A stretch of DNA of 14,001 nucleotides from an uncultured Anaerolineae bacterium (GTDB lineage Bacteria; Chloroflexota; Anaerolineae; JAYEMR01): positions 1 through 14,001 of the forward strand of contig CAYRNM010000050.1 of assembly GCA_964425465.1 (NCBI GenBank), read 5' to 3'. How positions within the stretch are numbered: position 1 is the stretch's first letter; each line of letters opens with the position of its first letter. Position numbers and translations under genes: made by a program. Below the pieces are notes generated by a model. The model made no database searches. It was not told the origin of the DNA and saw nothing but the letters and a program-made list of their open reading frames with translations. Positions 2 through 13,308 of the stretch are shown here, piece after piece.

Positions 2-346
2 TACCACTCCGACGGGGTCATCGAACCCATCATCGGGGACCTGATCGAGATCGGCGTGGATGCCCTTAACCCGGTGCAGCCGGATCGCATGGACCCACAG
101 GTCATCAAGCAGTGCTATGGAGATCGGCTGACACTGTGGGGCACGGTGGGAGTCCACACTACCTTTGCCCACGCCACACCGGACCAGATCCGGACCGAGG
201 TCCGCCATCGCCTGGAGACGCTGGGCTCCAGGCGGTTCGTCCTCTGCCCCGCCTACGACATTGATGAGCCCGACACCCCCTGGGCCAATGTGGCGGCCTT
301 CCTCGAGGCGGCTGTCCGGTATGGAAACGTGAGGAGTGAAGCGTGA
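2..346 (+). CDS. Uroporphyrinogen decarboxylase (URO-D) family protein, C-terminal fragment (HemE / MtaA-like methyltransferase fold); the 5' end lies outside the window
   Basis: The frame stays open from nt 2 (YHSDGVIEPIIGDLIEIGVDALNPVQPD...) to the TGA stop at 344-346. The C-terminal sequence pattern (DxxE-IG-D-LNPVQP ... LCPAYDI..DTP..N) resembles URO-D/MtaA family C-termini. It is convergent with the CDF gene, whose stop at 359-361 lies 12 bp away. Confidence 0.65.
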   Translation, partial: YHSDGVIEPIIGDLIEIGVDALNPVQPDRMDPQVIKQCYGDRLTLWGTVGVHTTFAHATPDQIRTEVRHRLETLGSRRFVLCPAYDIDEPDTPWANVAAFLEAAVRYGNVRSEA

Positions 347-358
347 AACGTGACACGC

Positions 359-1750
359 TCAACGCTCCACGAATATCTCCGGTTCCATGTGGATCACCAC
401 CCGGCCCAGGTGGGGAAGGCGGGCTCTCAGGGCGCTCTCTATCCGCTGTGATAGCTCGTGTGCCTCTCCGATGGGGGTATCGGGAGCCATCTGGCAGTGG
501 AGGGAGAGGGAGAGTTCATCCTGCAGGCGGCGCACTGATACCTTGTGACAGTTATCACACCACTCCGCTACCACCTGCTCCACGATCCGGCTGACCTCTT
601 CTGTCTCCTCCTGGCCCACCTCCTCGGCCCTTGCCTCGCGCAGCATGGGCTCAATGTGGGTGATCATCTCCCGCAAGCTGGGGAACTTTCCATGCGCGGC
701 CTCCACCAGCGCGCTGGAGCGTTGGTGTGCTTCGCACAAGGTGAGGTCGGCGGGGACCTCCACATGCAGGTCGGCGTAGAGATCGCCAGCTAGCTCATAA
801 GCCCGCAGGCCGTGGATGCGCAGGCCCAACTCGGTCGCCAGCCGCCGAAATCCCTCGCTGATCCCCTCCGCGCCGGTGCCACCCTCCCCCCGTTGGGGCT
901 CGATGTGAATGACGACATCCCTGACACCGTTCAAGTCCTCCGTTAACCGGTCCTGCACCTTGTGGGCGATGGCGTGGGCCTGGGCCACCGGCATGTCCGG
1001 CTCCACCCGGATGTGCAGGTCCACGTGGATGTCATCCTCGTGGCCCCGGCTGCGCACGTGGTGGACAGTCTCCACGCCCGGCACGGCCCGGGCGATCGCC
1101 TCGATCTTGCTGAGGGGAATGGCGACACGATCCAGCAGCGTCTTGGAGCTTTCGCGGATGATGTCCATGCCGATCTTGGCAATCACCCCGGCGATGGCCA
1201 AGGCCAGCAGGGGATCCACAAGGGGATAGCCCAGCCGCACGGCGATGAGCCCGCCCACAACGGAGAGGGAGACGTAGATGTCGGCCCGGGTGTGGAACGC
1301 ATCGGCCACCAGCACATCGCTCTTCAGCCGCCGCCCGGCGCGCAGCTCGTAACGCACCACGGTGAGGTGTACGAGGATGCTGGTCAGCAGGGCCCCGAAG
1401 CTCCACAGGTTGACCGTCGGTGCCATGAGCGCTGGAGCGCGCAGCCGTTCCAACGCGCTCTCCGCCAATTCCCAGCAGGTGAGGAAGAGTAGGATGGCGA
1501 TCCCTATGGCAGTGAAGGTCTCGAACTTGCGGTGGCCATAGGGATGCTCCTCGTCGGCTGGCCGGGCGGCGAGGGCTATCCCCACCAGCCCCACCACGTT
1601 GGAGGCGGAGTCGAAGACGGAATCGAAGCCGTCGGCGATGAGGCTGATGGAGCCGGTCCAGTAGCCCACGGCCAGCTTAGCCACTGTGGCCAGCAGGTTG
1701 AGGCCCATAGTGATAAACAACACGCGCCGGATGGCGGCGAAGTTCTTCAC
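359..1750 (-). CDS. Cation diffusion facilitator (CDF) family divalent-metal efflux transporter with a triplicated C-terminal cytoplasmic domain
   Basis: 463 aa. The N-terminal ~205 aa contains six hydrophobic helices, with DSVFD in TM2 and HTRAD in TM5 forming a DD-HD site-A pattern as in YiiP/CzcD. GTG start at 1750 is preceded by AAGGAG 7 nt upstream. The C-terminal 250 aa contains three related ~75-aa segments, each ending in VVIHIEP / MITHIEP / VVIHMEP. Confidence 0.85.
   Translation of the reverse strand: MKNFAAIRRVLFITMGLNLLATVAKLAVGYWTGSISLIADGFDSVFDSASNVVGLVGIALAARPADEEHPYGHRKFETFTAIGIAILLFLTCWELAESALERLRAPALMAPTVNLWSFGALLTSILVHLTVVRYELRAGRRLKSDVLVADAFHTRADIYVSLSVVGGLIAVRLGYPLVDPLLALAIAGVIAKIGMDIIRESSKTLLDRVAIPLSKIEAIARAVPGVETVHHVRSRGHEDDIHVDLHIRVEPDMPVAQAHAIAHKVQDRLTEDLNGVRDVVIHIEPQRGEGGTGAEGISEGFRRLATELGLRIHGLRAYELAGDLYADLHVEVPADLTLCEAHQRSSALVEAAHGKFPSLREMITHIEPMLREARAEEVGQEETEEVSRIVEQVVAEWCDNCHKVSVRRLQDELSLSLHCQMAPDTPIGEAHELSQRIESALRARLPHLGRVVIHMEPEIFVER
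380..1120 (-). repeat. Three tandem in-frame repeats encoding CDF cytoplasmic (CTD-like) domains (approx nt 896-1120, 647-865, 380-601)
   Basis: The protein segments are approximately 211-285 (GVETVHHVRSRGHEDDIHVDLHIRVEPDMPVAQAHAIAHKVQDRL..VRDVVIHIEP), 296-368 (GLRIHGLRAYELAGDLYADLHVEVPADLTLCEAHQRSSALVEAAHGKF.SLREMITHIEP) and 384-457 (CHKVSVRRLQDELSLSLHCQMAPDTPIGEAHELSQRIESALRARLPHLGRVVIHMEP). They share the pattern h-H-x-V-R/H ... D-hh-LH-h-x-V/M-x-PD-h-x-V/L-x-EAH ... hh-I-H-h-EP. Confidence 0.7.
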
Positions 1751-1761
1751 AAGAGCGCTCC

Positions 1762-2553
1762 TTATTCCTCTGCTTCCTGTGCTCGCGCCCGGTCGAGTAG
1801 CCTGGCGAAGATGGTGATGAACTCCAGAGGAACGGGGAAGATGATGGTCGAGTTTTTCTCCTCGGCGATCTGGACCAGCGTCTCCATATAGCGGAGTTGG
1901 ATGGCCATCGGCTCCTGGGCGAGGACATTAGCCGCCTGGGCCAAGGCCTGGGAGGCTTGGAGTTCTCCTTCGGCGTGGATCACCTTGCCCCGTTTCTCCC
2001 GCTCCGCCTCTGCCTGACGGGCCATGGCCCGCTTCATGGTATCGGGCAGCTCCACGTCCTTGACCTCGACGATGCTCACCTTTACCCCCCAGGGCGCAGT
2101 CTGCTCGTCAATAATCTGCTGAAGCTGGTGGTTGATCTGCTCCCGATGGGCGAGGAGTTCATCCAACTCTGACTGGCCCAGCACACTGCGCAGGCTGGTC
2201 TGGGCGATCTGCCAGGTAGCCCGCCGATAGTCCTCCACCTCCACGACAGCTCGCTCGGGGTCCAGGACGCGGAAGAAGGCCACGGCGTTGACTTTCACCG
2301 TGACATTGTCCCGCGTGATCGCCTCCTGAGCGGGGATGTCGAGCGTCTGGACGCGGAGGTTGACCTTGATCATCCGGTCCACGATGGGGATGATCAGGAA
2401 GATGCCCGGCCCTCTGGCGCCTACCAGCCGTCCCAGCCGCAGGATCACCCCCCGTTCCCACTCATTCACGATCTTGATCGCGGCGCTGAGGATGATGAGC
2501 AGAAAGACGCCCAGGGTGATGATGAGCGATAACAGCCCAGTAATCAAGCCCAT
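1762..2553 (-). CDS. SPFH / band-7 (stomatin-like, slipin) family membrane protein
   Basis: 263 aa with an N-terminal TM helix (LLSLIITLGVFLLIILSAAI), followed by the canonical stomatin core (VNEWERGVILRLGRL..GPGIFLIIPIVDRM..VNLRVQTLDIP.QE.ITRDNVTVKVNAV..FRV.DP..AV..V.DY..AT.QIAQTSLRSVLG...LDELL..RE.IN..L) and the C-terminal AEGE.QAS..LA.AA...PMA.QLRYMETL..IA.EKNSTIIFP. ATG at 2553 is preceded by AAGGAGG. The stop is 11 bp upstream of the CDF start, indicating translational coupling. Confidence 0.9.
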   Translation of the reverse strand: MGLITGLLSLIITLGVFLLIILSAAIKIVNEWERGVILRLGRLVGARGPGIFLIIPIVDRMIKVNLRVQTLDIPAQEAITRDNVTVKVNAVAFFRVLDPERAVVEVEDYRRATWQIAQTSLRSVLGQSELDELLAHREQINHQLQQIIDEQTAPWGVKVSIVEVKDVELPDTMKRAMARQAEAEREKRGKVIHAEGELQASQALAQAANVLAQEPMAIQLRYMETLVQIAEEKNSTIIFPVPLEFITIFARLLDRARAQEAEE

Positions 2554-2574
2554 GTGTCTGTCCTCCTTATCTCT

Positions 2575-3549
2575 CTATTCTACCCACACTTGCGCCCCCT
2601 TGTCCGTCTTCGTCGGTTCCGAAGCCAGGATGGGATGTCCCATCATTCCTTGCGTTCGAAGGAACTTCCGCAGTTGGGACAAGGTGGGGAAGGCTCCGCT
2701 GCCCCCCAGAGCGGTGATAGCCAGCCCCCCACAGGCATTGCCCAGGGTGACGCAGTCAGCTAAGGGCCAGCTCTGGAGCAGGCCGTACAGGAAACCGGAA
2801 CCGAAGGCAGCCCCAGCTCCGGTGGTGTCCACGACGGGCACGGGGAAGGCAGGGCGATGGAGTATCCTTTCGCCATCGCTGGCCAGTGCGCCCCTCCCTC
2901 CCAAGGTGACAACAACGAGGGGAAAGTGGGCGCTCAGTTTGCGCAGTGCAGCTTCGGGATCGGGCTGATGGGTCAGATGGGTCGCTTCCACCTCGTTGGC
3001 GATGAAGAGATCCACGGCCGAGCCCAACTCGTAGAGGGCCTCGCTCCACTGCTCGGTGGGGTCCCACCCGGCGTTGAGGATGGTGAGCATCCCCCGCGCC
3101 TTAGCCCGCTCGAAGATCGGCCCCTTCTGCTCCAGCCGGGTGCCGAAGAGGAGCAGGGCTTGGCTCTCCCCAAGGTGTTCCCAGGGCAGCACCTTGGCCG
3201 TGTAGTGGCCCTCGGCTCCCAGAAAGGTGGCGAAGGCCCGGTCCTGGGGCAGGGAGAGGGCAAAGGTGATATTGGCCTGCGCTTGGGGATCACGGATCAC
3301 AAAGCGTATATCCACCCCTCCCTGATGCAGATTGCGGACGATGAAATCGCTGAAGAAATCCTCCCCCAGCCGGGCAATAACCGCTGTCTCCAACCCCAGC
3401 CGGGCCAGGTTGAGGGCATAGAGGGCTGGGTCACCCCCCACGGCCAGGGCAAAGTCATCGCCGTAGACCTCCTCTCCCAACTGCGGCAGGCGTGTTAGCC
3501 CACTCATGAGGCAGTCCACGAACACATCGCCCACCGTGATGACCTGCAT
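2575..3549 (-). CDS. PfkB/ribokinase-family carbohydrate kinase homolog; the signature catalytic Asp is replaced by Ala (DTTGAGAAF)
   Basis: 324 aa. GG motif (AVGGDPALYA), NEVE (NxxE) motif and C-terminal anion-hole motif VVDTTGAGAAFGSGFLYGLL are present. Re-translating the minus strand at 2791-2829 confirms the codon GCT (Ala, plus-strand agc at 2809-2811) at the position where the family has the invariant GAGD Asp. Confidence 0.85.
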   Translation of the reverse strand: MQVITVGDVFVDCLMSGLTRLPQLGEEVYGDDFALAVGGDPALYALNLARLGLETAVIARLGEDFFSDFIVRNLHQGGVDIRFVIRDPQAQANITFALSLPQDRAFATFLGAEGHYTAKVLPWEHLGESQALLLFGTRLEQKGPIFERAKARGMLTILNAGWDPTEQWSEALYELGSAVDLFIANEVEATHLTHQPDPEAALRKLSAHFPLVVVTLGGRGALASDGERILHRPAFPVPVVDTTGAGAAFGSGFLYGLLQSWPLADCVTLGNACGGLAITALGGSGAFPTLSQLRKFLRTQGMMGHPILASEPTKTDKGAQVWVE

Positions 3550-3561
3550 TGCGCCGCCCCT

Positions 3562-4587
3562 CTACCCTCGACGGATGATGAGCCGATGGATGGCCCGATC
3601 TACTGCGCCAAAACGGTATTTGTACTCCTCGTCACCGCGCAAGAAGTCGAAGAGGGGATACCCCCGTTGGATGGCGTCCTGGATGCAGTAACACAGCAGC
3701 ACGATGCCGGGGCTCAGATGACGGTATCGTTGGGGGTCAAACCCGGAGTTGTAGACGGAGATGGCCTTCCCGTAGTCAAAGCAGAACATACTGGCTACCT
3801 TCTCGCCATTGATGGTGAGAAAAGCCAGATACAGCCAGCCCGCCTTCAGCATGACTGAAGCCATGGCCTGATTAAACTCCTGGCGCTGTTCGTCCATGTA
3901 CTCTTCTTTCACATGGCTGCTCTTCTGGAAGAGCTCAAAGTAGACCCCTATATCTTGGGCCAGGGTTTGGGGATCGTTGCTCAAGGTCCACTCGACCTGT
4001 TCCATGCCCCCCTCTGCCCGGCGCAGCTTGCGGCGGATCTCGTGGCGTTGCTTGCGGTCCAGTCGCTCCAGGTAGGCCTCCCAACTTTCGGGCAGGGCGA
4101 TGCCGGGGCACACGGTAAGCGGCTCGATTTGAAGCTCCAGGCCCCGCCCCTCGGCCAGGGGAGCCAGCACCTCCAGGGTAGGGGAGCCGGCCCGGATGTT
4201 GTCCACCTCGATGCGCTCCCAGTCGTCCCACTGGACCAGAGCATCGAGGATCGCTTCGTAGACCATCCCCTCTTGTCCCTTTTGGGCGATGAGATCCAGG
4301 TAATCAGATCCCCTGGGCGAGCCGATGATCCGCAGGCGGTGCGGCAGCCGGCCGGGGCTCTCATCGTACAGCGGCCAGAGGCCGACTAGCCGCTCCTCTC
4401 CATCGCGCACGGTGATCAGGGACAGCGTATCCTTTTCCTTAGGCCCGAAGTGCTCCCACCACACCTGCTGCCACTCGCAGGTCATGAACACTGTGTCGGA
4501 GGCACTCTGCTGCAGCAGACGATTCCACTCCTCCCCAAGCTGATCAAACTCTTCCGCTTTGGTATACACATCAATTTTCATGCCCAT
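3562..4587 (-). CDS. GNAT-fold acyltransferase of the FemAB/CelD-like type (Acetyltransf_6 / BioF2-like domain); probably aminoacyl- or acyl-transferase
   Basis: 341 aa. The C-terminal block RGYPLFDFLRGDEEYKYRFGA matches the FDFGRGDE.YK..(W/F)G signature of CelD/FemAB-like GNAT proteins. There is no canonical Q/RxxGxG acetyl-CoA loop. The start is ATG at 4587, or the Met two codons downstream. Confidence 0.55.
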   Translation of the reverse strand: MGMKIDVYTKAEEFDQLGEEWNRLLQQSASDTVFMTCEWQQVWWEHFGPKEKDTLSLITVRDGEERLVGLWPLYDESPGRLPHRLRIIGSPRGSDYLDLIAQKGQEGMVYEAILDALVQWDDWERIEVDNIRAGSPTLEVLAPLAEGRGLELQIEPLTVCPGIALPESWEAYLERLDRKQRHEIRRKLRRAEGGMEQVEWTLSNDPQTLAQDIGVYFELFQKSSHVKEEYMDEQRQEFNQAMASVMLKAGWLYLAFLTINGEKVASMFCFDYGKAISVYNSGFDPQRYRHLSPGIVLLCYCIQDAIQRGYPLFDFLRGDEEYKYRFGAVDRAIHRLIIRRG

Positions 4588-4614
4588 CGCCTGTGTTCCA
4601 CACTCCCAAGACGC

Positions 4615-4644
4615 GCCAGGGTGATCCCCTGCAATCGCCCTGGC
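4615..4644. other. Imperfect 11-bp inverted repeat (GCCAGGGTGAT-N8-ATCGCCCTGGC) in the 93-bp gap between the PIG-L1 and FemAB-like genes
   Basis: Seen directly: 10 of 11 stem positions are complementary with an 8-nt loop CCCCTGCA. No U-tract follows on the minus (transcribed) strand, so this is not a classical terminator. Confidence 0.3.
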
Positions 4645-4680
4645 ATTGGTGCCCAGTCTGTTTTATCTTCCAAGGGGCGC

Positions 4681-5403
4681 TCAGATCTCCAGATCGCTGC
4701 GCCCCAGCTTGCGAAAGGCCTCGGCATAGGCCAGACCCTGGGGTTGGCCCACCTGTGCGGCCCAGGCCCTGATGCGCTCCGGCAACCGCTCCATCGCATC
4801 GGGCGGGGCGAAGCCGGGTTCAGCCACCTGGCTGGCATGGCACTTGAGGGCCTCGATCTTGAGCTCGATGGTGTCGCTGATGTCCACCCAGTAGTTGGAC
4901 TCGCCAGGAGCGAAGAGGTAGTTCTCCTGGGGCTTGTAGGGCTCCAGCTTCTCCACCACGTGTTCAGGGTAGTACCAGGGACTGTCGGCCAGGTATCCCG
5001 CCTCGGCTGCGGCAAAGCCTACGGTGCGGTGGTCGGGATGCAGCTCGTAGGGACGCCAGGCATCGAAGGTGAGCAGGATGTCAGGGCGGATCTTGCGGAT
5101 GGCCCGCATGAAATCGCCCACCAGGTTTCGGGCCTCCTTGAGCTGGCCATCCTCGTAGCCCAGGAAGATCACCTCTTTCACTCCCAGGACCTCCGCTGCC
5201 GCCCGCATCTCCCGCCGCCGCACCTGGACCATCACCTCCGGGGTGACCTCGGTGGTGTGCATTCCCCGGTTGCCGTCGGTGGCGGAGATGTAAATGACCT
5301 CGTTGCCATCCCGAACCAACTTAGCGACCGTGCCGCCGCACAGGAACTCCGCATCGTCGGGATGGGCGAAAAGGACCAAAATCTTCTTACCGGTGACCGC
5401 CAT
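4681..5403 (-). CDS. PIG-L / LmbE family N-acetylglucosaminyl deacetylase (MshB/BshB-like metal-dependent de-N-acetylase), paralog 1
   Basis: 240 aa with the N-terminal VLFAHPDDAEF zinc/catalytic motif and HPDHR (HxDH) motif. Strong RBS GGAGGAGG upstream of ATG 5403. It is ~55% identical to the product of 6296..7042. Confidence 0.85.
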   Translation of the reverse strand: MAVTGKKILVLFAHPDDAEFLCGGTVAKLVRDGNEVIYISATDGNRGMHTTEVTPEVMVQVRRREMRAAAEVLGVKEVIFLGYEDGQLKEARNLVGDFMRAIRKIRPDILLTFDAWRPYELHPDHRTVGFAAAEAGYLADSPWYYPEHVVEKLEPYKPQENYLFAPGESNYWVDISDTIELKIEALKCHASQVAEPGFAPPDAMERLPERIRAWAAQVGQPQGLAYAEAFRKLGRSDLEI

Positions 5404-5441
5404 GAAAAGGACCTCCTCCGATTACTCGTTCGTGGAGCGTG

Positions 5442-5476
5442 ATGGTGGATTCGCTCCACGCTGCACGCTACACGCT
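5442..5476 (-). promoter_or_regulatory. Conserved 35-bp leader/operator element, copy A: three phased 7-bp direct repeats (AGCGTGN on the minus strand) plus palindrome GTGGA-N5-TCCAC, 39-73 bp upstream of the PIG-L1 start
   Basis: Plus-strand atggtggattcgctccacgcTGcacGctAcacgct is 31/35 identical to 9213-9247. In this copy the palindrome extends to a 9-bp stem (CGTGGAGCG/CGCTCCACG, loop AATCCACCATCA when read on the minus strand). Confidence 0.4.
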
Positions 5477-5518
5477 TCTTCTGCCACTGCCTGGGCTGGG
5501 AACTCGATATTCACTGCC

Positions 5519-6280
5519 TCATGCGCCCATCTCTTGGTGCACTAATGCAAATCCCAGTCTACGCGCTATGCGCAAAGATGGAATATTGTTCGCATAAGCG
5601 CCATACAAGGCGGCGGCTCCCTGTTCTAAAATCCATTTCGTTGCGGCCGATACGGCCGCAAGACCGTATCCCTGTCCCCGACAGGCTTCTTCGGTCCACA
5701 CGCCATAGGTGGCAACCGGACCAGGTTTCCATATGATGATGGCAATTGAGGCGCACCGTAGGCCGAAGGCCGCCAATTCAGTGGCTGTCACATCTGGATC
5801 GCTATGATAGCAGGCAAATGCCCAGATAAAGTCTTCGGAGACTGGCTGCCGTCTCTCAGACATCCGTAGGTCAAATTGCTCTGGGGGGATGTCCTTCTTT
5901 GTGAGTGCTACCGGTGTATGCTGGGTTTCTGCCGGGTGGAAATCCCTTGAGTTGGTCAGAATGTAATCAAAACCGTAGATGTAGAATCGGTCGAGTATTT
6001 CAGCCTTGTTTCCTAACACTCGCTTGATTTCCGCCGCACCCAGAGGAGAAAAAATCTCCCAAGGGGTCATTGATTGAGCAGCGGGAGCGATGGCTTCAAC
6101 GACGCGGGGTATGGCAGTTATCAAGACGCCGTCTCTGTCGGCGATTCGCTGAATCAGGAGACGATTTCTGGGCTCATCCGTCCGCTTTGGCGACTCTCGA
6201 ACGGTAATACCCTGGAGCGGAAAATCCTCAAGCGATAATCCCGCTTTACTCTCCAGGTATCTGCGTATTCGGTTATCCAT
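5519..6280 (-). CDS. GNAT family N-acetyltransferase with an uncharacterised ~130-aa N-terminal domain, encoded on a low-GC island
   Basis: 253 aa. The C-terminal GNAT core contains IWKPGPVATYGVW.EEA.RGQGYGLAAVSA..KWILEQG...R.IARRLGF (Q/R-x-x-G-x-G/A acetyl-CoA loop). Perfect SD AGGAG sits 7 nt upstream of ATG 6280. Hand counts of 60-nt chunks give 38-52% GC (for example 23/60 at 5941-6000, 30/60 at 6001-6060, 31/60 at 5519-5578) against ~63% for the neighbouring PIG-L genes. Confidence 0.6.
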   Translation of the reverse strand: MDNRIRRYLESKAGLSLEDFPLQGITVRESPKRTDEPRNRLLIQRIADRDGVLITAIPRVVEAIAPAAQSMTPWEIFSPLGAAEIKRVLGNKAEILDRFYIYGFDYILTNSRDFHPAETQHTPVALTKKDIPPEQFDLRMSERRQPVSEDFIWAFACYHSDPDVTATELAAFGLRCASIAIIIWKPGPVATYGVWTEEACRGQGYGLAAVSAATKWILEQGAAALYGAYANNIPSLRIARRLGFALVHQEMGA

Positions 6281-6295
6281 CTCGATTCTCCTGGG

Positions 6296-7042
6296 TCATA
6301 ACCCAGTTATGGTACCATCATCTGAGATCCAGTCACCGTCTGTCACCCTGTGGAAGGCCTCAGCGTAGTCCACGCCGATCTGCTTCCCTGCCTCGGCCGC
6401 CCAGCCCTTCACCCAGCGGGCAAACTCCTCCAGCCACGGTGGTTCGACATGGTTGCCCAGTTGCGTCTTGTGCTGCCGCAAAGCCTCGATCTTGAGGTCA
6501 ATAGTCTCCGTCACATCCACCCAGTAGTTGGGTTCCTGTGTGCCGAAGAGAACCATCTCCGACGGTTTGTAGGGCTCCAGCCCCTCGGCGATGTGCTGGG
6601 GGAAGTACCAGGGGCGGTCGGCCAGATAGCCGGCCTCCGTGGCTGCCCAACCGACCATGCGGTGGGCGGGATGGATCTGGTAGGGCCGCCAGGGATCGTG
6701 GGTGAAGATGATGTAGGGCCGATACTGGCGAATCAGGCGCATGATCTTCTCCACCAACTCTGAGGGACTGCCCCACTCGCCCGGCTTGCGCAGGTAACGC
6801 AGTCCGATGGCCTCCTTCACACCCAGCATCTCCATGGCCGCCCGTTGCTCCTGCTCGCGGATGTCCAGTAATTCGCCTGGGGTGGTAGCCAAGGTATGGA
6901 TACCACCTGCGCCCCCGGTGCAGATCACATACCAGATCTCATTCCCCTGCCGAGCCAACTTCGCTGCCGTAGCGGCCACTCCAAACTCCGCATCATCAGG
7001 GTGGGCAAAGAAAACGAACACCCTTTTGTCCGTTAGAACCAC
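6296..7042 (-). CDS. PIG-L / LmbE family deacetylase, paralog 2
   Basis: 248 aa with VFFAHPDDAEF. The HxDH motif reads HPAHR here, an Asp to Ala change relative to paralog 1. There are long colinear matches to paralog 1, for example AGYLAD.PWY.P.H..E.LEPYKP.E..LF......NYWVD...TI.LKIEAL..H. Confidence 0.85.
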   Translation of the reverse strand: MVLTDKRVFVFFAHPDDAEFGVAATAAKLARQGNEIWYVICTGGAGGIHTLATTPGELLDIREQEQRAAMEMLGVKEAIGLRYLRKPGEWGSPSELVEKIMRLIRQYRPYIIFTHDPWRPYQIHPAHRMVGWAATEAGYLADRPWYFPQHIAEGLEPYKPSEMVLFGTQEPNYWVDVTETIDLKIEALRQHKTQLGNHVEPPWLEEFARWVKGWAAEAGKQIGVDYAEAFHRVTDGDWISDDGTITGL

Positions 7043-7054
7043 CGATTGAACTCC

Positions 7055-8014
7055 CTACTCTTGGCTTGATTTGACCTTCTGATTGGCAAAAAGCTCCGCT
7101 GGCATGTCGCGAGGGATGATAATGGTGAGCGCCCGAGGCACGACCTCCAGCTCGATAGGGGTGGCAGCCATGGGGTCACCGTCCAGTTGGACTGGAAGGG
7201 GGACCGCCGTCTCGACCACGACCCGCCGGCCCCGATAGTAGGCCACCTCCGGGCCATTGAGATACTGACCGGTCAGGATGGCCGTAGCATGGCTAAGGGT
7301 CGAGGTCCAATCATGGCCTCTGAAGATGCACACATCGAACAGGCCATCGTCGAGCTGAGCCTGAGGAGTGAGGCGCAGCATCCCTCCGTAGAGTTGGACA
7401 TTACTGATCAGCACCAGGATCACCTGCTCCCGAAGGACATGGCCATCAATGGTGATGGTGGCTAGTGTCCCCTCAAACTCACGGGTCACCGCCGCCACGG
7501 CCACAGCGTAGGCCAGAGCGCCCCACCGTTTCTGAACTCGGGTGCGCGGCTCCATGAGCTCGGTCACCTTGGCGTCCAGCCCCACCCCGGCCCAGAGGAG
7601 GAAGTAGTGTTGGCCCGCACGCCCCACATCCACCTGACGGCGCTGCCCCTCCACCAACGCTATGGCTGCCTCTTCCAGGAAGTGGCGGTGGATGATCCCC
7701 CACAGGGGCAACCCCATCTCCCGAGCCCAGACATTGCCCGTTCCAATGGGCAGTACCCCCAGCGCTACCTCTGTCCCTGCCAGACCATTCACCACCTCGC
7801 TGATCGTGCCATCCCCACCGGCGGCCAGGGCCACGTCGTATCCCCTGGCCACCGCTTCGCGGGCAAAGGTCGTCGCATCACCAGGCCCCCACGTCTCCCG
7901 CCAGGTGACATCCCATCCCCGCTGGCCAAGGTAGCCGACGATTTCCAGGAGCTCTTTCCTCCAGTCACGCCAACCGGCAGCGGGATTGAAGATCAGCATG
8001 GCCCTCATATCCAC
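7055..8014 (-). CDS. Diacylglycerol-kinase catalytic-domain (DAGK_cat; YegS/BmrU/LCB5-like) family lipid kinase
   Basis: 319 aa with the AAGGDGT glycine-rich ATP loop, N-terminal IFNP..G start pattern and C-terminal beta-sandwich region. Start is GTG at 8014 or ATG at 8008. Gaps of 12 bp and 26 bp separate it from the neighbouring genes. Confidence 0.8.
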   Translation of the reverse strand: MDMRAMLIFNPAAGWRDWRKELLEIVGYLGQRGWDVTWRETWGPGDATTFAREAVARGYDVALAAGGDGTISEVVNGLAGTEVALGVLPIGTGNVWAREMGLPLWGIIHRHFLEEAAIALVEGQRRQVDVGRAGQHYFLLWAGVGLDAKVTELMEPRTRVQKRWGALAYAVAVAAVTREFEGTLATITIDGHVLREQVILVLISNVQLYGGMLRLTPQAQLDDGLFDVCIFRGHDWTSTLSHATAILTGQYLNGPEVAYYRGRRVVVETAVPLPVQLDGDPMAATPIELEVVPRALTIIIPRDMPAELFANQKVKSSQE

Positions 8015-8040
8015 ATCCCCCGTCGGCTCTTTGATGGGTA

Positions 8041-9189
8041 TTATAGGGGCAATTCGTAGATGCGATAGGTCTTGTAGGGTTGGCCTCCCAAGCGGCGGGC
8101 GAGGCGGTTCATCATGGTATTGTCCTCCAGGACGAGCGACCCCTCACAATGAGTATATCCCTTAGCCAGCGACGCATTCCCCGACTCCATGAACAGGGCG
8201 GCCTCGATACCCTGGCCGCGATACTCCTCTATGACACCCATGATGAGCCCTCGCCAAGTGGTGATCCGTCTTCTGTAGCGCAGGAACTTCAGCAGCGTCC
8301 AGGGCACACTCCGGCGGGAGGGACCGGGGTGGGCCTTGAGCAGGGCCTGGTTCACATCCGGCAATCCCACCGACACGCCCACTGGCCGATCCCCATCCTC
8401 AGCCAGGAAGAGCAGATCGGGGTCTAGGATGGACTTGAGCCCCTGCGCCAGGTGCTCGAACTCCGCATCGGTCATGGGCACGAAGCCCCACAGCTTCACC
8501 CAGGCAGAGTTGTAGATGGCCTTGGCCCGCTGCACCTCATTGTCCCAGTCCCTCATGTTGACTTTGCGGACGCGGATCTTGCCCTTTTGCAGGGTGACCT
8601 CGGCCACTCGGACCAACTTGCGAGGCAGATTCCGGCTCAGGGAGGCGGCCTCGAAAAGATAGGCGTACAGGTCTCGCGCCTTTCCGAAGCCGAAGCGTTC
8701 GATGAACTCGGCGTAGTAGGGCGGGTTGTAGGTCATCATGACCACCGGCGGGGAGTCGAAGCCCTCAATGAGCAGCGCATACTCCGCATTGGTGGAGAGG
8801 TTCACCGGCCCCAGGATGGCGCTCATCCCCTGATCGCGCACCCAATCGCGGGCCGTGCTCAGCAGCGCCTCGGCTACAGCGTACTCCTCGATCACCTCGA
8901 AGAGTCCGAACCACCCCACCTGCACTTCCTGGAAAGCGTTGTAATTGTGGTCCACCGTGGCGGCGATAGTACCGATCACTTCCCCATCGGGACGCTCGGC
9001 CAGGAAAAAGGCGGCGTCGGTGTGCTCAAAGAAGGGATTCTTCTCAAGGTCAATGTAGGCCCGCCGTTCCGTCACCAGCGGGGGGACCCAGTTGGGATCA
9101 TCGCGGTAGATGGTCCAGGGAAACTTGACGAAGGCCCAGCGGTCACGGTCGTCCGCCACCTGGCGGATGCGAAATCGAGAATCGCTCAT
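8041..9189 (-). CDS. Two-domain GNAT superfamily N-acyltransferase (MshD-like architecture; C-terminal domain carries the acetyl-CoA loop)
   Basis: 382 aa. The C-terminal IMGVIEEYRGQGIEAALF matches the R/Q-x-x-G-x-G/A motif. The N-terminal ~200 aa form a second GNAT-like fold lacking the motif. SD AAGGAGG sits 5 nt upstream of ATG 9189. Confidence 0.6.
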   Translation of the reverse strand: MSDSRFRIRQVADDRDRWAFVKFPWTIYRDDPNWVPPLVTERRAYIDLEKNPFFEHTDAAFFLAERPDGEVIGTIAATVDHNYNAFQEVQVGWFGLFEVIEEYAVAEALLSTARDWVRDQGMSAILGPVNLSTNAEYALLIEGFDSPPVVMMTYNPPYYAEFIERFGFGKARDLYAYLFEAASLSRNLPRKLVRVAEVTLQKGKIRVRKVNMRDWDNEVQRAKAIYNSAWVKLWGFVPMTDAEFEHLAQGLKSILDPDLLFLAEDGDRPVGVSVGLPDVNQALLKAHPGPSRRSVPWTLLKFLRYRRRITTWRGLIMGVIEEYRGQGIEAALFMESGNASLAKGYTHCEGSLVLEDNTMMNRLARRLGGQPYKTYRIYELPL

Positions 9190-9212
9190 CGGTCCTCCTT
9201 ATCCCATAACTT

Positions 9213-9247
9213 ATGGTGGATTCGCTCCACGCCTCACACTTCACGCT
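9213..9247 (-). promoter_or_regulatory. Conserved 35-bp leader/operator element, copy B, 24-58 bp upstream of the GNAT-382 start; its last heptad overlaps the MFS stop codon
   Basis: Plus-strand atggtggattcgctccacgcCTcacActTcacgct is 31/35 identical to 5442-5476, with the same three 7-bp phased repeats (NCACGCY) and the same GTGGA-gcgaa-TCCAC palindrome. Confidence 0.4.
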
Positions 9248-10670
9248 ATCCCTGTCGCTCCTCTCGCACCCACAGCAGAACCACAGCCGAGATGAGGAAG
9301 CAGGCGCTGTAAATAACGAAGATGACCAGGTAGCCCAGGCTATCCACCCGCCGGTTGAAGAAGTCGGCCAGCGGGCCACCCAATCCTGCACCCACGATCC
9401 CCGCCCCGGCCCCGGCCAGATTGGAGATGCCCAGGTAGCGGCCGGCCTCCTCAGGCGGCACCAGGTCCGTCCCCAGAGCCCAGTTGGTGGTGAAGAAGAT
9501 GCCGGTAGCCACGCCAATGATGCAGCCGCTGATCAGGACCCAGGTCACGTCAGGAGAAAAAACGAGGAGCAGAGTCCCCAGGGTGGCTCCCAGCCCCGCC
9601 AGGGCCACCAGCCGTTTGCGGCCGATTCGGTCGGCCAGATAGCCGCTGGGCAGTGCGGCCAGCAGGGTGAAGAGGCCCACTACCATCATCAGATGGCCTG
9701 TGGTATGGGGGGCATTGGAGACCCGCAGCACGTCCTGCAGGAAGTAGAGGGCGAAGCTCTGCAGGGACCCCACCGCCGCCAGGAAGAGCAACCGGTTGGT
9801 CACCCACCAGGTGAAGGAGGGATAGCGGTGCGCCTCGGCACTGATGCTCACACTGGCCCACACGCCGGCGATGATAGCCGCCACCATGGCCATCAAGCCC
9901 CCGATCCCCACCCCCACTATCAGCGCCCTTTCCCGACCGGCAAAGGACAACAGTACCAGCCCACCGGCGCCGCCCACCAGGGCTCCGCAGAGTGCGCCGG
10001 CCAGGGCCCCGATGCCCATGCCCAGGAGCAGCCCCAAGATGCGCAGCATCAGAGGGACGAGGGGCTGCTCGGAGGGCTCCCGCAGCGGCTCCTCCCGCAC
10101 GAAAATCATGGTGAGGAGCATGGTCACCAGCAGCGATCCGCCCACCACAACGAAGGCAGCCATCATGTGCCCGCTCCCCACCAACTTGGCCACCGTGAAG
10201 GCGGTCAGCACCACGGGCAGGAGTTCCATCACCGCCTTGACCCCCGAGGCCCGCCCCCGCTGATCCTCGGGCACCAGATCGGGGATGAGCCCCTGGAGAG
10301 CACCATGGGCGATGTTGGAGGAGAACTGAAGCAACAGCATGGCCAGGAAGAGCAGCCAATAGTTGCCTGACAGCGCGACCAGGGTCAGAAAGAGCAGGTC
10401 CAGCATAGTGCCCAGGAAGATGTAAGGCCGCCGGCGTCCCCAGCGGAAGGTGCTTCGGTCGCTGAGCAACCCAGCTGCCGGCTGCACCAGAATGGCTACC
10501 ACCAGGCCTGCGGCGCGCAGCCCCCCATAGAAGGTGTTCTTCATCTCTGGGCCCACGAACTGCTGCACCAGCACGGGGAGGATGATGGGGGTCAGGCTGC
10601 CGGAGGCCATGTTGAGCCCCAGCCAGTAGATGTTCAGCCAGATGAAGTCGCCGATGCTCAGTCGTTGCAT
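9246..10670 (-). CDS. Major facilitator superfamily (MFS) transporter
   Basis: 474 aa, highly hydrophobic with ~12-14 predicted helices. Characteristic MFS loop motifs are present (GLLSDRSTFRWGRRRPY after TM2; LADRIGRKR after TM8). Start is ATG at 10670. Confidence 0.85.
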   Translation of the reverse strand: MQRLSIGDFIWLNIYWLGLNMASGSLTPIILPVLVQQFVGPEMKNTFYGGLRAAGLVVAILVQPAAGLLSDRSTFRWGRRRPYIFLGTMLDLLFLTLVALSGNYWLLFLAMLLLQFSSNIAHGALQGLIPDLVPEDQRGRASGVKAVMELLPVVLTAFTVAKLVGSGHMMAAFVVVGGSLLVTMLLTMIFVREEPLREPSEQPLVPLMLRILGLLLGMGIGALAGALCGALVGGAGGLVLLSFAGRERALIVGVGIGGLMAMVAAIIAGVWASVSISAEAHRYPSFTWWVTNRLLFLAAVGSLQSFALYFLQDVLRVSNAPHTTGHLMMVVGLFTLLAALPSGYLADRIGRKRLVALAGLGATLGTLLLVFSPDVTWVLISGCIIGVATGIFFTTNWALGTDLVPPEEAGRYLGISNLAGAGAGIVGAGLGGPLADFFNRRVDSLGYLVIFVIYSACFLISAVVLLWVREERQG

Positions 10671-10750
10671 GGAGGCCGCCTCTTGCTTGTTATGCCTTCA
10701 GTGCTTGCCAACCGAAGGCGGTTTTGGGCCATAAGTATACATCATAATCA

Positions 10751-10792
10751 AAGGGGGAACAAATCAAGAGGGTGGGCACGAAGGCCCACCCT
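10751..10792 (-). terminator. Putative intrinsic terminator for the TA operon (minus strand)
   Basis: On the minus strand: AGGGUGGGC-cuucgu-GCCCACCCU (9-bp perfect GC-rich stem, 6-nt loop; plus-strand 10769-10792) followed by CUUGAUUUGUUCCCCCUU. It lies 25 bp after the toxin stop codon. Confidence 0.4.
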
Positions 10793-10816
10793 TGATGCTG
10801 AACATCTTACGCTTTT

Positions 10817-11072
10817 TCACGGGTCTCCCCTGTAGACATCCCTGCGATGTTTGATCTTCATCACCGTTACTTCCCTGGCCTGGTTATCAGCCTCATACAC
10901 TACCTGGTAATCGCCAACACGAATCCTCCAGCCTATCCCGCCTCGCAGCTTCTTCACACCCGAAGGCCGGGGGTCTTCAGCCAGGCGGGAGATGGCCCTC
11001 TCAACACGATCACGAAAAAGGAATAGCCGCTAACTCCCGCTCAGCCGGCTGGAGCAGATACAGGTTGTACAT
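10817..11072 (-). pseudogene. RelE/ParE-family toxin gene interrupted by a single-base frameshift in an A5/T5 homopolymer (plus 11015-11019)
   Basis: Minus-strand frame B starting at ATG 11072 reads MYNLYLLQPAERELAAIPFS then a stop. A frame one nucleotide further continues (L)FRDRVERAISRLAEDPRPSGVKKLRGGIGWRIRVGDYQVVYEADNQAREVTVMKIKHRRDVYRGDP to the stop at 10817-10819. Removing one T from the T5 run fuses both parts into an ~84-aa protein with the RelE/ParE hallmarks (N-terminal MY..F...A..DL..LP; C-terminal G.YRIRVGDYR.IY.......V.I..IGHRKDVY). Confidence 0.7.
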
Positions 11073-11337
11073 GCAGAGTCTCTTCTCCTCGCTCCCGCTC
11101 AGCCAGATATTCTCCAAAAGGCCGACGCGGTTCGTTCTGGCGCTCGTAGATAGCCACCACGTCGCTCAAGTCCTCCAGCCGCTCCATCAGGGCCTCAAAA
11201 TGCTTATAACCCATCAGGACCGCAATGGGGTGACTGCGGTAAGTGATGTACTGGGGCTCAGGTTGCTCAGCCGCCGATTTGAGTATCTCCTCCATCCTCT
11301 CACGCAAGTCGGATGCGGATACGATCTTCGTAGCCAT
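11041..11337 (-). CDS. Phd/YefM-family antitoxin
   Basis: From ATG 11337 (SD GAGGAAGG 5 nt upstream): MATKIVSASDLRERMEEILKSAAEQPEPQYITYRSHPIAVLMGYKHFEALMERLEDLSD..., matching the Phd/YefM fold pattern (S..E.R.NL.E.L......P..IT.RG.P.AVL.S.E.YE.L.E.LE.L.D). The six-frame ORF extends 13 codons further upstream without an RBS. Its 3' end overlaps the toxin start by 32 nt. Confidence 0.7.
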   Translation of the reverse strand: MATKIVSASDLRERMEEILKSAAEQPEPQYITYRSHPIAVLMGYKHFEALMERLEDLSDVVAIYERQNEPRRPFGEYLAERERGEETLHVQPVSAPAG

Positions 11338-11381
11338 CAATCCTTCCTCAAACCTTAACTCAAGTTTCAACCGCACCTAAG

Positions 11382-11409
11382 ATGATACCACATCCCCCCA
11401 TCCTGTCAA
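11382..11409 (-). promoter_or_regulatory. Sigma70-type promoter of the TA operon: TTGACA-N16-TATCAT
   Basis: Minus strand gTTGACAggatggggggatgtggTATCATc: a perfect -35 (plus 11404-11409) and a 5/6 match at -10 (plus 11382-11387), about 45 nt upstream of the antitoxin ATG. Confidence 0.5.
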
Positions 11410-11422
11410 CTCACCCTCGCCT

Positions 11423-11848
11423 TCATAGCGCTGTGCGAATCTTACCGGCTATAGCCTCGAGTTCTGCCCTTGTGGGCCGGTGGCCGTACTCTGGCCCAAA
11501 CCTTAAACCAAACCCATCGTTTGTGTAGCGTGGAAACACATGGAGGTGGACATGGAACACCTCTTGGCCTGCGGCTGCACCATCGGCCAGAAAGAAGTTG
11601 ACCCCTTCGCATTGGAGCCCGCTGTTCCTTAACGCTTGGGCAATGCGTTGGGCTGTCCGAAACATGCGATCGCCCGAGGCTTCATCGAGTTCCGCCAGAG
11701 ACGGGGCATGGGTGGTGGGGATGACCAGCACATGCCCTGGATTCACAGGCTGAATATCCATGAAGGCCCAGCACAGGTCATCCCTGAAAACGATGCTGGC
11801 TGGGAGCTTCCCTGCTAAGATGGCACAGAATACGCAAGCACTCATCAC
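11423..11848 (-). CDS. HIT (histidine triad) family nucleotide hydrolase/transferase
   Basis: 141 aa with the histidine triad HVHLHVFPR and the N-terminal CVFC...I....A..V..DD...AF.DI.P...GH.LVIP. It starts 3 nt after the upstream gene's stop, indicating translational coupling. Confidence 0.85.
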   Translation of the reverse strand: MMSACVFCAILAGKLPASIVFRDDLCWAFMDIQPVNPGHVLVIPTTHAPSLAELDEASGDRMFRTAQRIAQALRNSGLQCEGVNFFLADGAAAGQEVFHVHLHVFPRYTNDGFGLRFGPEYGHRPTRAELEAIAGKIRTAL

Positions 11849-11851
11849 TTT

Positions 11852-12211
11852 TCAGCCAAACATCCGCATGTCCACCGGCTGATAGGGATGCGCCTTCACC
11901 ACCTCCATGTTCAGCTCGATCCCCAACCCCGGCTGGGTCGGCAGTTCGTAGTAGCCATCCATCAGAGTTTCGAGAGGCTCGGTCAGGAGCTCCTTCCGCC
12001 AGGGCGCACCCAGGTCCAGTGGGGTCTCCAGAAAGAGGAAGTGGGGCAGACAAGCGGCCAGGTGCAGGCAGGCGGCGGCGATGGTCTGCTCTTTGCCCTC
12101 CAGCGTGGCCTCGCCCAGGCCGGTGAGGCCCTCGTCGGTCTCGACCTGGACGAACCCCCAGTTGCGCCAGCCGCCAAAGGTCAGATAAGTTCTCACAGCG
12201 GCAATCTTCAT
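11852..12211 (-). pseudogene. Remnant of an enolase-superfamily (mandelate racemase/DgoD/ManD-like) dehydratase gene with a large in-frame internal deletion
   Basis: The 119-aa ORF joins a typical MR/MLE N-terminus (MKIAAVRTYLTFGGWRNWGFVQVETDEGLTGLGEATLEGKEQTIAAA) directly to a typical C-terminal tail (ETPLDLGAPWRKELLTEPLE...GYYELPTQPGLGIELNMEVVKAHPYQP). The ~250-280 aa capping-domain remainder and TIM-barrel core are missing. It retains a strong SD (GAGGAGG) and an ATGA overlap with the formamidase stop. Confidence 0.6.
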
Positions 12212-13191
12212 GGAAGGCCTCCTCGTATAAACCCCGGCAGGTAGGCCTTGGGAAACTTGGCCACGATGGTGTAACGAGGGTCAACCACGTTGCCCACTCG
12301 GGCCGTGCCCACCTGCGAGACCACCTGCATGGCCTCCCACAGGTCGAAGCCGTAGTCCGCCGCCAGCCAGCGGATCAGCTCCACGTGGGCGATGCGGTAG
12401 GCATCCATGAGGGGACGGGTTGAGGCCGCGACCATGATGTGGCTCCCATCCTCGATGCGTGGCCAGCGGATGGCCTTCTTCCGGATGAGGTCCACGGTCA
12501 CCTGCGCCCTGGCGGGTGTCTCCAGTCCCACGCCACAGGCCTCCCCATCCCCCTGGGCAGCGTGCACATCGCCGAACATGAGGCAGGCCCCCTCCACGAA
12601 GACGGGGAGGTAGACGGTAGCCCCTACCCCTGTGTCCACGCAGTCCATATTGCCCCCGTGCTCGCCGGGTGCAATGGAACTGATCACCTCACCGAAGCGC
12701 GGTGCGGTGCCGATGCAGCCAAAGAAGGGATGTAGGGGGATCTCAATCCGCTCCAGAGAGCTTTGAGGAAGCTCTAACCGCCCCACGTTGCGCTCCAGGT
12801 CCAGCTCCCAGATGAAACTCCGCTCCGGCAGCGGCTCGCTCAGCCCGGTGGGGCCGCAGGTCCGGTCCTCAGGGGCGAAGACACCGAACCCCGGCACGAA
12901 GCGCGACTCCGCCCAGGAGCGGTTGGGGGTGATCTCCTCGATGTGGACCACCAGCGTGTCGCCTATTCCGGCCCCCTCCACGTAGAAGGGCCCTGTCTGA
13001 GGGTTGGCGGCGTAGACTCTGGTCCCCGACGGCTGGTGCCTCATCTCCTCGGGGACCTCTTCGCCATCGGGCCCCCGGCTGCTGGAATCGAGGGTCTGAG
13101 TGACGATGGCATCGCCGGGCCTCACCCACAGCGCGGGTTCGTGGGGGCCGAAGGTGTAGTAGAACTTGGTGGGGGTGAATTCGTGACGCAT
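12208..13191 (-). CDS. Acetamidase/formamidase (FmdA_AmdA) family amidohydrolase
   Basis: From ATG 13191 (SD AAGGAG 7 nt upstream) it is 327 aa: MRHEFTPTKFYYTFGPHEPALWVRPGDAIVTQTLDS..., with family-like blocks (PGD.V...T.D; NP.TGP..VEGA..GD.L.V.I; HGGNMD...G.G....LPV.V.GA....GD.HA.QGDGE). The six-frame ORF's extra 33 N-terminal codons begin at a TTG (13290) and have no RBS. Confidence 0.8.
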   Translation of the reverse strand: MRHEFTPTKFYYTFGPHEPALWVRPGDAIVTQTLDSSSRGPDGEEVPEEMRHQPSGTRVYAANPQTGPFYVEGAGIGDTLVVHIEEITPNRSWAESRFVPGFGVFAPEDRTCGPTGLSEPLPERSFIWELDLERNVGRLELPQSSLERIEIPLHPFFGCIGTAPRFGEVISSIAPGEHGGNMDCVDTGVGATVYLPVFVEGACLMFGDVHAAQGDGEACGVGLETPARAQVTVDLIRKKAIRWPRIEDGSHIMVAASTRPLMDAYRIAHVELIRWLAADYGFDLWEAMQVVSQVGTARVGNVVDPRYTIVAKFPKAYLPGFIRGGLP

Positions 13192-13218
13192 GGCGAACTC
13201 CTTTGCATGACGTAGGGA

Positions 13219-13308
13219 CGAGGCATTCCCACGATCATCCTGCATTTGCCCCGAGCGCTTGTCCATACAAGTACGGTGTAATTGAGCCAATCCGCATGGA
13301 ATGCCTCG
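13219..13308. promoter_or_regulatory. Perfect 11-bp inverted repeat (CGAGGCATTCC ... 68 bp ... GGAATGCCTCG) bracketing a candidate promoter (minus strand TTGGCT-N17-TATGGA, plus 13262-13290) upstream of the formamidase operon
   Basis: Seen directly: 13219-13229 is the exact reverse complement of 13298-13308. The promoter-like hexamers lie between the half-sites. Confidence 0.3.

Follow-up and report, generated by a model that had tools for sequence, protein, structure and literature searches.

An eight-gene run in an uncultured Anaerolineae bacterium as a possible juxtaposition of two separable modules and one acquired gene

Results

Composition of the eight-gene run

The genomic stretch analyzed here (hereafter the window) comprises 14,001 nucleotides from an uncultured Anaerolineae bacterium (assembly GCA_964425465.1, contig CAYRNM010000050.1, positions 1 to 14,001) and carries a run of eight minus-strand genes between positions 2575 and 10670. 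An earlier interpretation of the letters alone, referred to below as the sequence-only reading, had put these eight genes forward as one candidate, undescribed pathway that de-N-acetylates, re-acylates, and phosphorylates an amino sugar. Its open reading frames, their positions, and all of the gaps between them were reproduced exactly, and each of its family calls was confirmed by Pfam and NCBIfam. Comparison with related genomes nevertheless suggests that the run may join two independently conserved modules and one recently acquired gene.

The first gene of the run (9246-10670) encodes a 474-residue MFS transporter (PF07690, 119 bits; MFS_2, 59 bits) and opens what we call module A. It is followed by the genes for a tandem-GNAT N-acyltransferase of 382 residues, assigned below to the YghO/CC_1154 (bCerS) family (GNAT2; 8041-9189), and for a soluble lipid kinase with DAGK_cat and YegS_C domains (DAGK; 7055-8014). 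Module B comprises two paralogous PIG-L/CE14-type deacetylases, PIGL_A (6296-7042; PF02585, 88.6 bits) and PIGL_B (4681-5403; PF02585, 118 bits), an Acetyltransf_6 protein with a Fem/MprF-type dupli-GNAT fold that makes it a candidate aminoacyl-tRNA-dependent transferase (AT6; 3562-4587), and a PfkB-family sugar kinase (2575-3549; PF00294, 159 bits). Between the two deacetylase genes lies the gene for a 253-residue protein with a C-terminal GNAT domain (GNAT253; 5519-6280), an outlier both in G+C content and in G+C at third codon positions (GC3).

Calculated from these coordinates, the gaps from the MFS gene to the PfkB gene measure 56, 26, 12, 15, 115, 93, and 12 bp. A consensus scan, whose total count of terminator-like sites did not exceed the shuffled expectation, placed none in these seven intergenic gaps. 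The same-strand packing goes on past position 2575 into an SPFH/Band7 gene (1762-2553; PF01145, 135.7 bits) after 21 bp and, after a further 11 bp, into a CDF metal exporter gene (359-1750; TIGR01297, 264 bits), giving ten successive minus-strand genes in the window. Both of these additional genes lie outside the proposed pathway. Because the packing runs on into them, the 3′ boundary of the run is arbitrary, and spacing alone is no evidence of common function here.

Separation of the two modules in relatives

Homologues of the cluster proteins come overwhelmingly from metagenome-assembled genomes (MAGs) of Anaerolineae and other Chloroflexota, with 100%-matching proteins confined to short metagenome contigs. 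To compare gene neighborhoods, we used AT6 as the anchor for 80 GTDB species loci, each taken with 10 kb on either side, and GNAT2 as the anchor for 83 loci. Homologues of GNAT2, DAGK, and the MFS transporter were found in none of the 80 AT6-anchored loci within 10 kb, and the two PfkB matches among these loci are weak (22-24% identity) and not orthologues. PIG-L and PfkB were likewise absent from all 83 GNAT2-anchored loci, one of which (L095) carries an AT6 homologue at a distance of 8 kb on the opposite strand.

The nearest relatives reveal where the run comes apart. Three loci (L174-176) keep the trio of MFS (59% identity), GNAT2 (83-84%), and DAGK (85-86%) together, with GT2/PMT_2/GT4 genes upstream and beta-helix surface-protein genes downstream, and PIG-L, AT6, and PfkB are absent from all three. 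A fourth relative, L177, retains PIGL_A (86%), PIGL_B (85%), AT6 (69%), and PfkB (78%) together with Band7 and CDF. In L004, both halves lie side by side as in the window, and an MFS gene 78% identical to that of the window adjoins GNAT2 and DAGK. Since the HIT, Band7, and CDF flanks of L004 are also syntenic with the window, its joined halves reflect the general synteny of close relatives. Within that locus (4704-10969), MFS, PIGL_A, and AT6 are each called as two fragments, pointing either to assembly or frameshift errors or to decay of the cluster. L095 carries DAGK, GNAT2, and MFS in a different gene order, with a kinase 31% identical to that of the window.

Two apparent additional linkages were discarded. 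A PfkB gene beside a GNAT2 homologue in L085, considered as a rearranged linkage, encodes a protein only 28% identical to the PfkB of the window and of a different subfamily. In L174, the glycosyltransferase family 4 (GT4) gene that precedes the trio differs from the MshA-like GT4 described below, with 26% identity over the C-terminal half.

This separation of the trio from the PIG-L/AT6/PfkB half, in relatives at 83-86% identity, shows that the eight genes are not one conserved unit and goes against the proposal that they form a single undescribed pathway. The sequence-only reading had named a lack of conserved linkage in other genomes as evidence against itself; linkage is indeed not conserved for the run as a whole, and it persists within each of the two sub-modules.

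A foreign gene and a repeated 35-bp element

The window has a G+C content of about 62%, and the genes neighboring GNAT253 have GC3 values of 74-85%, whereas GNAT253 itself shows 52.9% G+C and a GC3 of 53%. No GNAT253 lies between the PIG-L genes of L004 and L177. The family is rare: 1.84 billion proteins yielded 44 representatives at E≤1e-10, including one from a Phycisphaerae MAG, and 14 at E≤1e-30. Its unusual GC3, its absence from L004 and L177, and the rarity of its family together identify GNAT253 as a recent insertion. By composition and distribution, it is a recently acquired, foreign gene and not, as first proposed, a pathway component common to relatives. Its first ~170 residues have no Pfam match, a PDB sequence search with the protein was uninformative, and the gene is split in two on one strain contig.

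The 35-bp element that the sequence-only reading had noticed in two of the longer gaps is real. One minus-strand copy (5442-5476) abuts the foreign GNAT253 gene, and the other (9213-9247, also minus strand) lies between the MFS and GNAT2 genes. The copies are 89% identical and share an identical 19-nt core, for which 0.01 chance matches were expected. The element is built from three AGCGTG-type repeats of 7 nt, after which comes a GTGGA-N5-TCCAC palindrome, and the first copy, together with downstream bases, can form a perfect 9-bp hairpin (5431-5460). Outside the host species the element was absent from 177 related loci (2.25 Mb; up to 3 mismatches in the core and up to 8 in the full element), relatives L004 and L174-177 included. 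Because it is confined to the host species, its identity as a conserved operator or as a mobile element is unsupported.

Module A: a bCerS-family acyltransferase, a lipid kinase, and a transporter

GNAT2 gave no informative Pfam or PDB sequence match. In a tblastn comparison, it aligned with Escherichia coli YghO across residues 6-379 of 382 (35% identity, 98% coverage, E 5e-61). The E. coli yghO gene adjoins genes for a fatty acyl-AMP ligase, an epimerase, an acyl carrier protein, and a RefSeq-annotated serine palmitoyltransferase (spt). It has been given as a homologue of Caulobacter CC_1154, an N-acyltransferase needed for dihydroceramide synthesis (PMC9386255), and the CC_1154 enzyme has been named bCerS (PMC11087976, PMC11334938). 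Our tie of GNAT2 to CC_1154 runs through the YghO alignment and this published homology. Judged by its full-length homology to YghO and its tandem two-domain GNAT fold, GNAT2 is a member of the YghO/CC_1154 (bCerS) family, which replaces its earlier description as an "MshD-like" two-domain GNAT.

Gene neighborhoods across the family carry a ceramide-type signature. An alpha-oxoamine synthase gene (Aminotran_1_2) lies directly upstream of the GNAT2 homologue in 30 of the 83 loci, a CerR-like NAD-dependent epimerase is encoded nearby in 21, and a PAP2_3 membrane protein resembling inositol phosphorylceramide (IPC) synthase in 11. Spt adjacency specifically was seen in 25 of 57 evaluable loci, and in Streptomyces the gene for a homologue with 40% identity has an aminotransferase I/II gene on one side and an epimerase gene on the other. 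A published study reports Spt-like genes in 218 Chloroflexota MAGs and shows that co-localization of ceramide genes is not obligatory in known producers (PMC11334938).

The kinase exceeds the TIGR00147 cut-off (183.8 bits versus 118.65) and also matches DAGK_cat (104 bits) and YegS_C (99 bits); on these scores, it is a member of the YegS/Rv2252/BmrU lipid kinase family. Its best solved relative is DgkB (E 2e-34). DAGK adjoins GNAT2 in L004 and L174-176, and the more distant kinase does so in L095. Genes for a different transporter, of the MFS_3 type, follow GNAT2 homologues in at least seven loci, and in L095 an MFS_3 gene and the more distant kinase gene flank the GNAT2 homologue. The ceramide kinase CpgB of Caulobacter is likewise a soluble protein with a DAG-kinase domain and is encoded in the sphingolipid locus (PMC10331486).

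Module B: deacetylases, a Fem-fold transferase, and a sugar kinase

Both PIG-L proteins find their best solved relatives among archaeal CE14 diacetylchitobiose deacetylases (Dac; 8bgn, 3wl4, 3we7), with ~225 residues aligned and E values of 2.7e-41 (PIGL_B) and 9e-37 (PIGL_A). Scores against the thiol-pathway models are far lower than required, at 40.2 and 46.2 bits for MshB (TIGR03445; cut-off 224.35), 96 and 116 bits for BshB1 (cut-off 182.5), and 73 and 88 bits for BshB2 (cut-off 195), and both proteins also fall far under the Mca cut-off. The subfamily assignment that the sequence-only reading had left to profile searches thus places the two proteins closest to CE14 Dac-like enzymes, not to MshB or BshB.

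In a neighbor-joining tree of homologues, PIGL_A and PIGL_B are lineage-specific sister paralogues (50% identity), and neither was placed in the group linked to GT4 or the group linked to glycoside hydrolase family 4 (GH4). PIGL_B carries the canonical AHPDD and HPDH metal/catalytic motifs. The HPDH motif is shared with ten other Chloroflexota homologues, the exceptions being PIGL_A (HPAH) and its L004 orthologue (HPTH). At the position of the T(D/S/N)G(D/N/S)(K/R)G motif, PIGL_A has TGGAGG, and it also carries a two-residue insertion. To judge from these motifs, PIGL_A may be a catalytically altered paralogue.

PIG-L homologues also occur in other settings. At L002 (11100-16849), where AT6 has no GT4 neighbor, one lies on the opposite strand with GH4 and sugar ABC transporter genes, a layout reminiscent of chitobiose catabolism. 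In L005, a PIG-L homologue (10509-11225) lies ~6 kb from AT6, in a position similar to that in L002.

By its own family, AT6 belongs to PF13480 (107 bits). Its AF2 model (pLDDT 89) shows a dupli-GNAT fold closest to Fem/MprF structures. The Fem/MprF-type fold is the fold of aminoacyl-tRNA transferases. Lysine K323, within the YKYRFG motif of AT6, is invariant across 17 homologues. In FemXWv, Lys305 is a conserved C-terminal catalytic lysine, and Orf11, also Fem-like, uses Gly-tRNA to aminoacylate an amino sugar (PMC12945691). Orf11 is thus a direct precedent for the predicted N-aminoacylation of an amino sugar that has lost its acetyl group.

The best GTDB species representative for AT6 is only 52% identical, and the neighborhoods of its homologues hold a recurrent partner. 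Clustering of neighboring open reading frames placed a GT4 gene of ~425 codons directly downstream of the AT6 homologue in 38 of 74 evaluable Chloroflexota species loci and directly upstream in one. In a full-length alignment, this GT4 protein scores 372 bits against the MshA equivalog TIGR03449, under the cut-off of 462.5, with the next-best family at 130 bits. A PIG-L homologue is the next gene after GT4 in 5 of the 36 loci with room for one, and L018 adds a further case. The resulting cassette of Acetyltransf_6, MshA-like GT4, and PIG-L is found in L010, L018, L025, L027, L028, and L031 (for example, L031 1377-4473). Overall, AT6 and PIG-L are linked in 6-8 of the 80 loci, against fewer than one expected by chance, a rough estimate that assumes about three PIG-L genes per 4,000-gene genome.

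Targeted literature searches found no description of a cassette of GT4, PIG-L, and a Fem-like enzyme, no paper tying Chloroflexi to MshA, mycothiol, or bacillithiol, and none tying Fem-like enzymes to PIG-L and glucosamine (GlcN). As far as these searches show, the cassette is undescribed. It follows the logic of mycothiol and bacillithiol synthesis, with a probably tRNA-dependent enzyme in the place of the ligase. The earlier idea of de-N-acetylation followed by re-acylation, with a Fem/CelD-like substitute for the ligase, therefore survives for module B and is strengthened by the GT4-PIG-L linkage in other Chloroflexota; it does not extend to all eight genes.

The PfkB kinase scores 141 bits against IolC-N and 127 bits against ribokinase, both under their cut-offs, and its best solved relatives are ribokinases. 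Its gene follows AT6 in L004 and L177. A role as a myo-inositol kinase feeding an MshA-like enzyme would be speculation, as no solved inositol kinase appears among the best PDB matches.

Boundaries and flanking genes

A strong terminator-like hairpin on the minus strand (10769-10792; T-rich tail and a 9-bp stem in which 7 pairs are G-C) lies 5′ of the MFS gene and plausibly, indeed likely, marks the 5′ boundary of the transcription unit. Farther 5′ (10840-11376) are a Phd/YefM antitoxin gene (TIGR01552) and then a frameshifted, truncated remnant of a ParE/RelE-type toxin gene. A sigma-70-like promoter match (11 of 12 positions; 11382-11409) lies upstream of the antitoxin gene. A HIT-family hydrolase gene (11423-11848), syntenic in L004, and an acetamidase/formamidase-family gene (12208-13290) are also found upstream of the run. 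At the opposite end, the 463-residue CDF transporter has three matches to the cytoplasmic ZT_dimer domain against the usual one, an apparent triplication of its C-terminal domain. No Rfam family matched in the window.

Discussion

We would give an even chance to the explanation that the run brings together, in this lineage specifically, two modules conserved independently of each other and one recently acquired gene, and is not a single dedicated pathway, with module chemistry as follows. For module A (MFS, GNAT2, and DAGK), we infer that GNAT2 would most likely N-acylate an amino-lipid, the acceptor being, by analogy with CC_1154/bCerS, a sphingoid base or 3-ketosphinganine. DAGK would then add phosphate to the acylated lipid, or to a neutral lipid related to it, as CpgB does to ceramide, and the MFS protein would move the lipid or a head-group precursor. 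In module B (PIGL_A, PIGL_B, AT6, and PfkB), the deacetylases would most likely free the 2-amino group of a glycoside containing N-acetylglucosamine (GlcNAc), AT6 would re-acylate the freed amine with an amino acid from aminoacyl-tRNA, following Orf11 chemistry, and PfkB would phosphorylate a sugar or cyclitol that serves as substrate or precursor. Module B would thus be a local variant of the widespread Chloroflexota cassette of Acetyltransf_6, MshA-like GT4, and PIG-L, with its glycosyltransferase encoded elsewhere in this lineage. Gene content, families, folds, and the separation of the modules in relatives are observed here; the substrates and reactions named for both modules are all inferred.

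Several observations weigh against this explanation. Genes for spt, cerR, and an MshA-like GT4 are absent from the window, leaving both proposed pathways without their first steps here, and spt and cerR are absent from L004 and L174-176 as well. Spt adjacency, which holds for 25 of 47 more distant GNAT2 relatives, holds for none of the 10 relatives at ≥52% identity, so the GNAT2 of the window could be a paralogue with another acceptor. Homologues of DAGK at 52-55% identity occur in unrelated contexts (three long contigs, no conserved partner) and resemble the housekeeping kinase DgkB. PIGL_A has AHPDD but reads HPAH for HPDH (residues 124-127; window 6662-6673), with loss of the catalytic-motif Asp. 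For AT6, the choice that the sequence-only reading had posed between Acetyltransf_6 and FemAB falls to the former; the Pfam FemAB_like score is 16.8 bits, under the 27-bit cut-off, and neither single-sequence nor profile searches returned a Fem protein among the PDB matches, so that the link between AT6 and Fem enzymes is one of fold. Finally, the two modules lie side by side in no fewer than three of the lineages sampled, represented by the window, L004, and a contig of 11.9 kb, with no terminator-like site between them, and their co-transcription and a joint role are possible.

This last point is the core of a rival explanation that we regard as unlikely, in which one operon makes one product, a phosphorylated (sphingo)lipid whose head group bears GlcN and is N-acylated or aminoacylated. 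GNAT2 would synthesize the lipid for DAGK to phosphorylate, the GlcN head group would be tailored by the PIG-L proteins, AT6, and PfkB, and the MFS transporter would flip the product. The shared strand, the gaps of 12-115 bp free of terminator-like sites, the adjoining halves in the window, L004, and metagenome contigs, the AT6 homologue 8 kb from DAGK-GNAT2-MFS in L095, and the PAP2_3 (IPC-synthase-like) genes near GNAT2 homologues at 11 loci all fit such a product. Against it stand the equally tight spacing of the unrelated Band7 and CDF genes, the general synteny (HIT, Band7, and CDF included) that accounts for L004, and the counts from the anchored loci, with 0 of 80 AT6 loci holding GNAT2, DAGK, or MFS within 10 kb and 1 of 83 GNAT2 loci holding AT6 (L095, opposite strand) and none PIG-L or PfkB. 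What decides our ranking of the unified glycolipid below the two-module explanation is that the modules separate at 83-86% identity, where the trio occurs without the other half.

Catabolism offers another route to module B, perhaps together with the MFS transporter, through salvage of chito-oligosaccharides or GlcNAc glycosides by uptake, Dac-like de-N-acetylation, and phosphorylation of GlcN by PfkB. The closeness of both PIG-L proteins to archaeal diacetylchitobiose deacetylases, the PIG-L homologues of L002, next to GH4 and sugar ABC transporter genes, and of L005, ~6 kb from AT6, the MFS_2/GPH-type sugar-transporter similarity of the MFS protein, and the sugar-kinase nature of PfkB argue for it. 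However, the window has no glycoside hydrolase, GlcN-6-P deaminase, or regulator, the partners that the MFS gene keeps are GNAT2 and DAGK and not the PIG-L genes, no glucosamine-kinase model matches PfkB, and AT6 has a biosynthetic, transferase-type fold whose conserved partner elsewhere is a glycosyltransferase. Salvage fits the PIG-L and PfkB similarities, then, but does not fit the Fem-type transferase or the lack of hydrolase and deaminase genes, and we consider it rather improbable. Least probable, in our estimate, is that nothing beyond neighboring pairs shares a function and that housekeeping-type genes (a DgkB-like kinase, generic GNATs, a sugar kinase, and deacetylases) are simply packed head-to-tail in a compact genome. 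Such packing would explain the equally tight Band7 and CDF genes, the many unrelated contexts of DAGK and GNAT2 homologues, and the synteny of unrelated flanking genes in L004. It would not explain why the MFS-GNAT2-DAGK and PIGL-PIGL-AT6-PfkB blocks each persist when their surroundings change, why the AT6/PIG-L linkage recurs in distant species (6-8 of 80 loci, with fewer than one expected on the rough estimate above), or why DAGK-GNAT2-MFS recurs in a different order in L095.

Under the two-module explanation, module A most resembles the bacterial ceramide genes (Spt, bCerS CC_1154/CCNA_01212, YghO, CerR, and CpgB). GNAT2 is a full-length YghO homologue at 35% identity and has further homologues, from Streptomyces and metagenomes, whose flanking genes are Spt-like and CerR-like, and the window, like the Caulobacter locus, pairs an acyltransferase with a soluble lipid kinase of the DAG-kinase fold (PMC10331486). 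The window differs in lacking spt, cerR, acpR, and aasR, in including an MFS gene in the unit, in the absence of Spt linkage among GNAT2 relatives at ≥52% identity, and in a kinase whose closest solved relative is DgkB.

Module B shares the logic of mycothiol (MshA-MshB-MshC-MshD) and bacillithiol (BshA-BshB-BshC) synthesis, in which GT4-catalyzed GlcNAc transfer is followed by PIG-L de-N-acetylation and amide formation on the freed amine. The likeness is clearest in other Chloroflexota, where the AT6 homologue stands beside an MshA-like GT4 and sometimes a PIG-L gene. The window itself, as the sequence-only reading had stated, holds no MshA/BshA-type glycosyltransferase and no MshC/BshC-type ligase, with no GT4 or CysRS-like open reading frame. 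Its putative ligase is a Fem-type dupli-GNAT protein, and its PIG-L proteins score 40-116 bits against the 182-224 cut-offs of the MshB and BshB models. We know of no thiol product from these organisms. Compared with the Fem family (FemX/A/B, Orf11/Sbb17 of streptothricin-type pathways, and the MprF synthase domain), AT6 is similar in fold, without a sequence-level match, and its partners GT4, PIG-L, and PfkB are unlike the peptidoglycan, lipid, and antibiotic contexts of that family. Among solved structures, both PIG-L proteins come closest to the CE14 Dac enzymes of chitin catabolism in Thermococcales, with AHPDD and HPDH present in PIGL_B. Here the differences are the absence of a GlmA-type glucosaminidase, a chitinase, and a GlcN-6-P deaminase from the window, the HPAH motif of PIGL_A, and associated genes that are biosynthetic-type transferases.

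Taken across the phylum, these comparisons lead to a broader proposal, which we advance only tentatively. Chloroflexota (Anaerolineae and relatives) would make an undescribed aminoacyl-glucosamine conjugate by means of an MshA-like GT4, a CE14-type PIG-L, and a Fem-type, tRNA-dependent AT6 that replaces the MshC/BshC-type ligase. The window would hold a lineage-specific version of this system with duplicated deacetylases and an added PfkB kinase, beside a ceramide-synthase-like module. The conjugate could resemble mycothiol or bacillithiol as a small molecule, or else be a GlcN glycolipid carrying an aminoacyl group.

The locus also carries a caution for the reading of gene clusters, since tight head-to-tail packing reaches clearly unrelated genes and cluster boundaries are unreadable from spacing alone. 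Chloroflexota have only recently been proposed as sphingolipid producers, from metagenomics (PMC11334938). If the two-module explanation is right, this Anaerolineae lineage would couple a bCerS-family acyltransferase with a lipid kinase and a transporter, and the trio would be a concrete three-gene target for phosphorylated sphingolipid synthesis in this phylum. The more interesting part is the AT6-GT4-PIG-L linkage, which suggests a tRNA-dependent answer to the "ligase" step of GlcN-conjugate biosynthesis. If that is true, the cassette could point to a new thiol of low molecular weight, or to a new aminoacylated glycolipid, in a large phylum with few cultured members.

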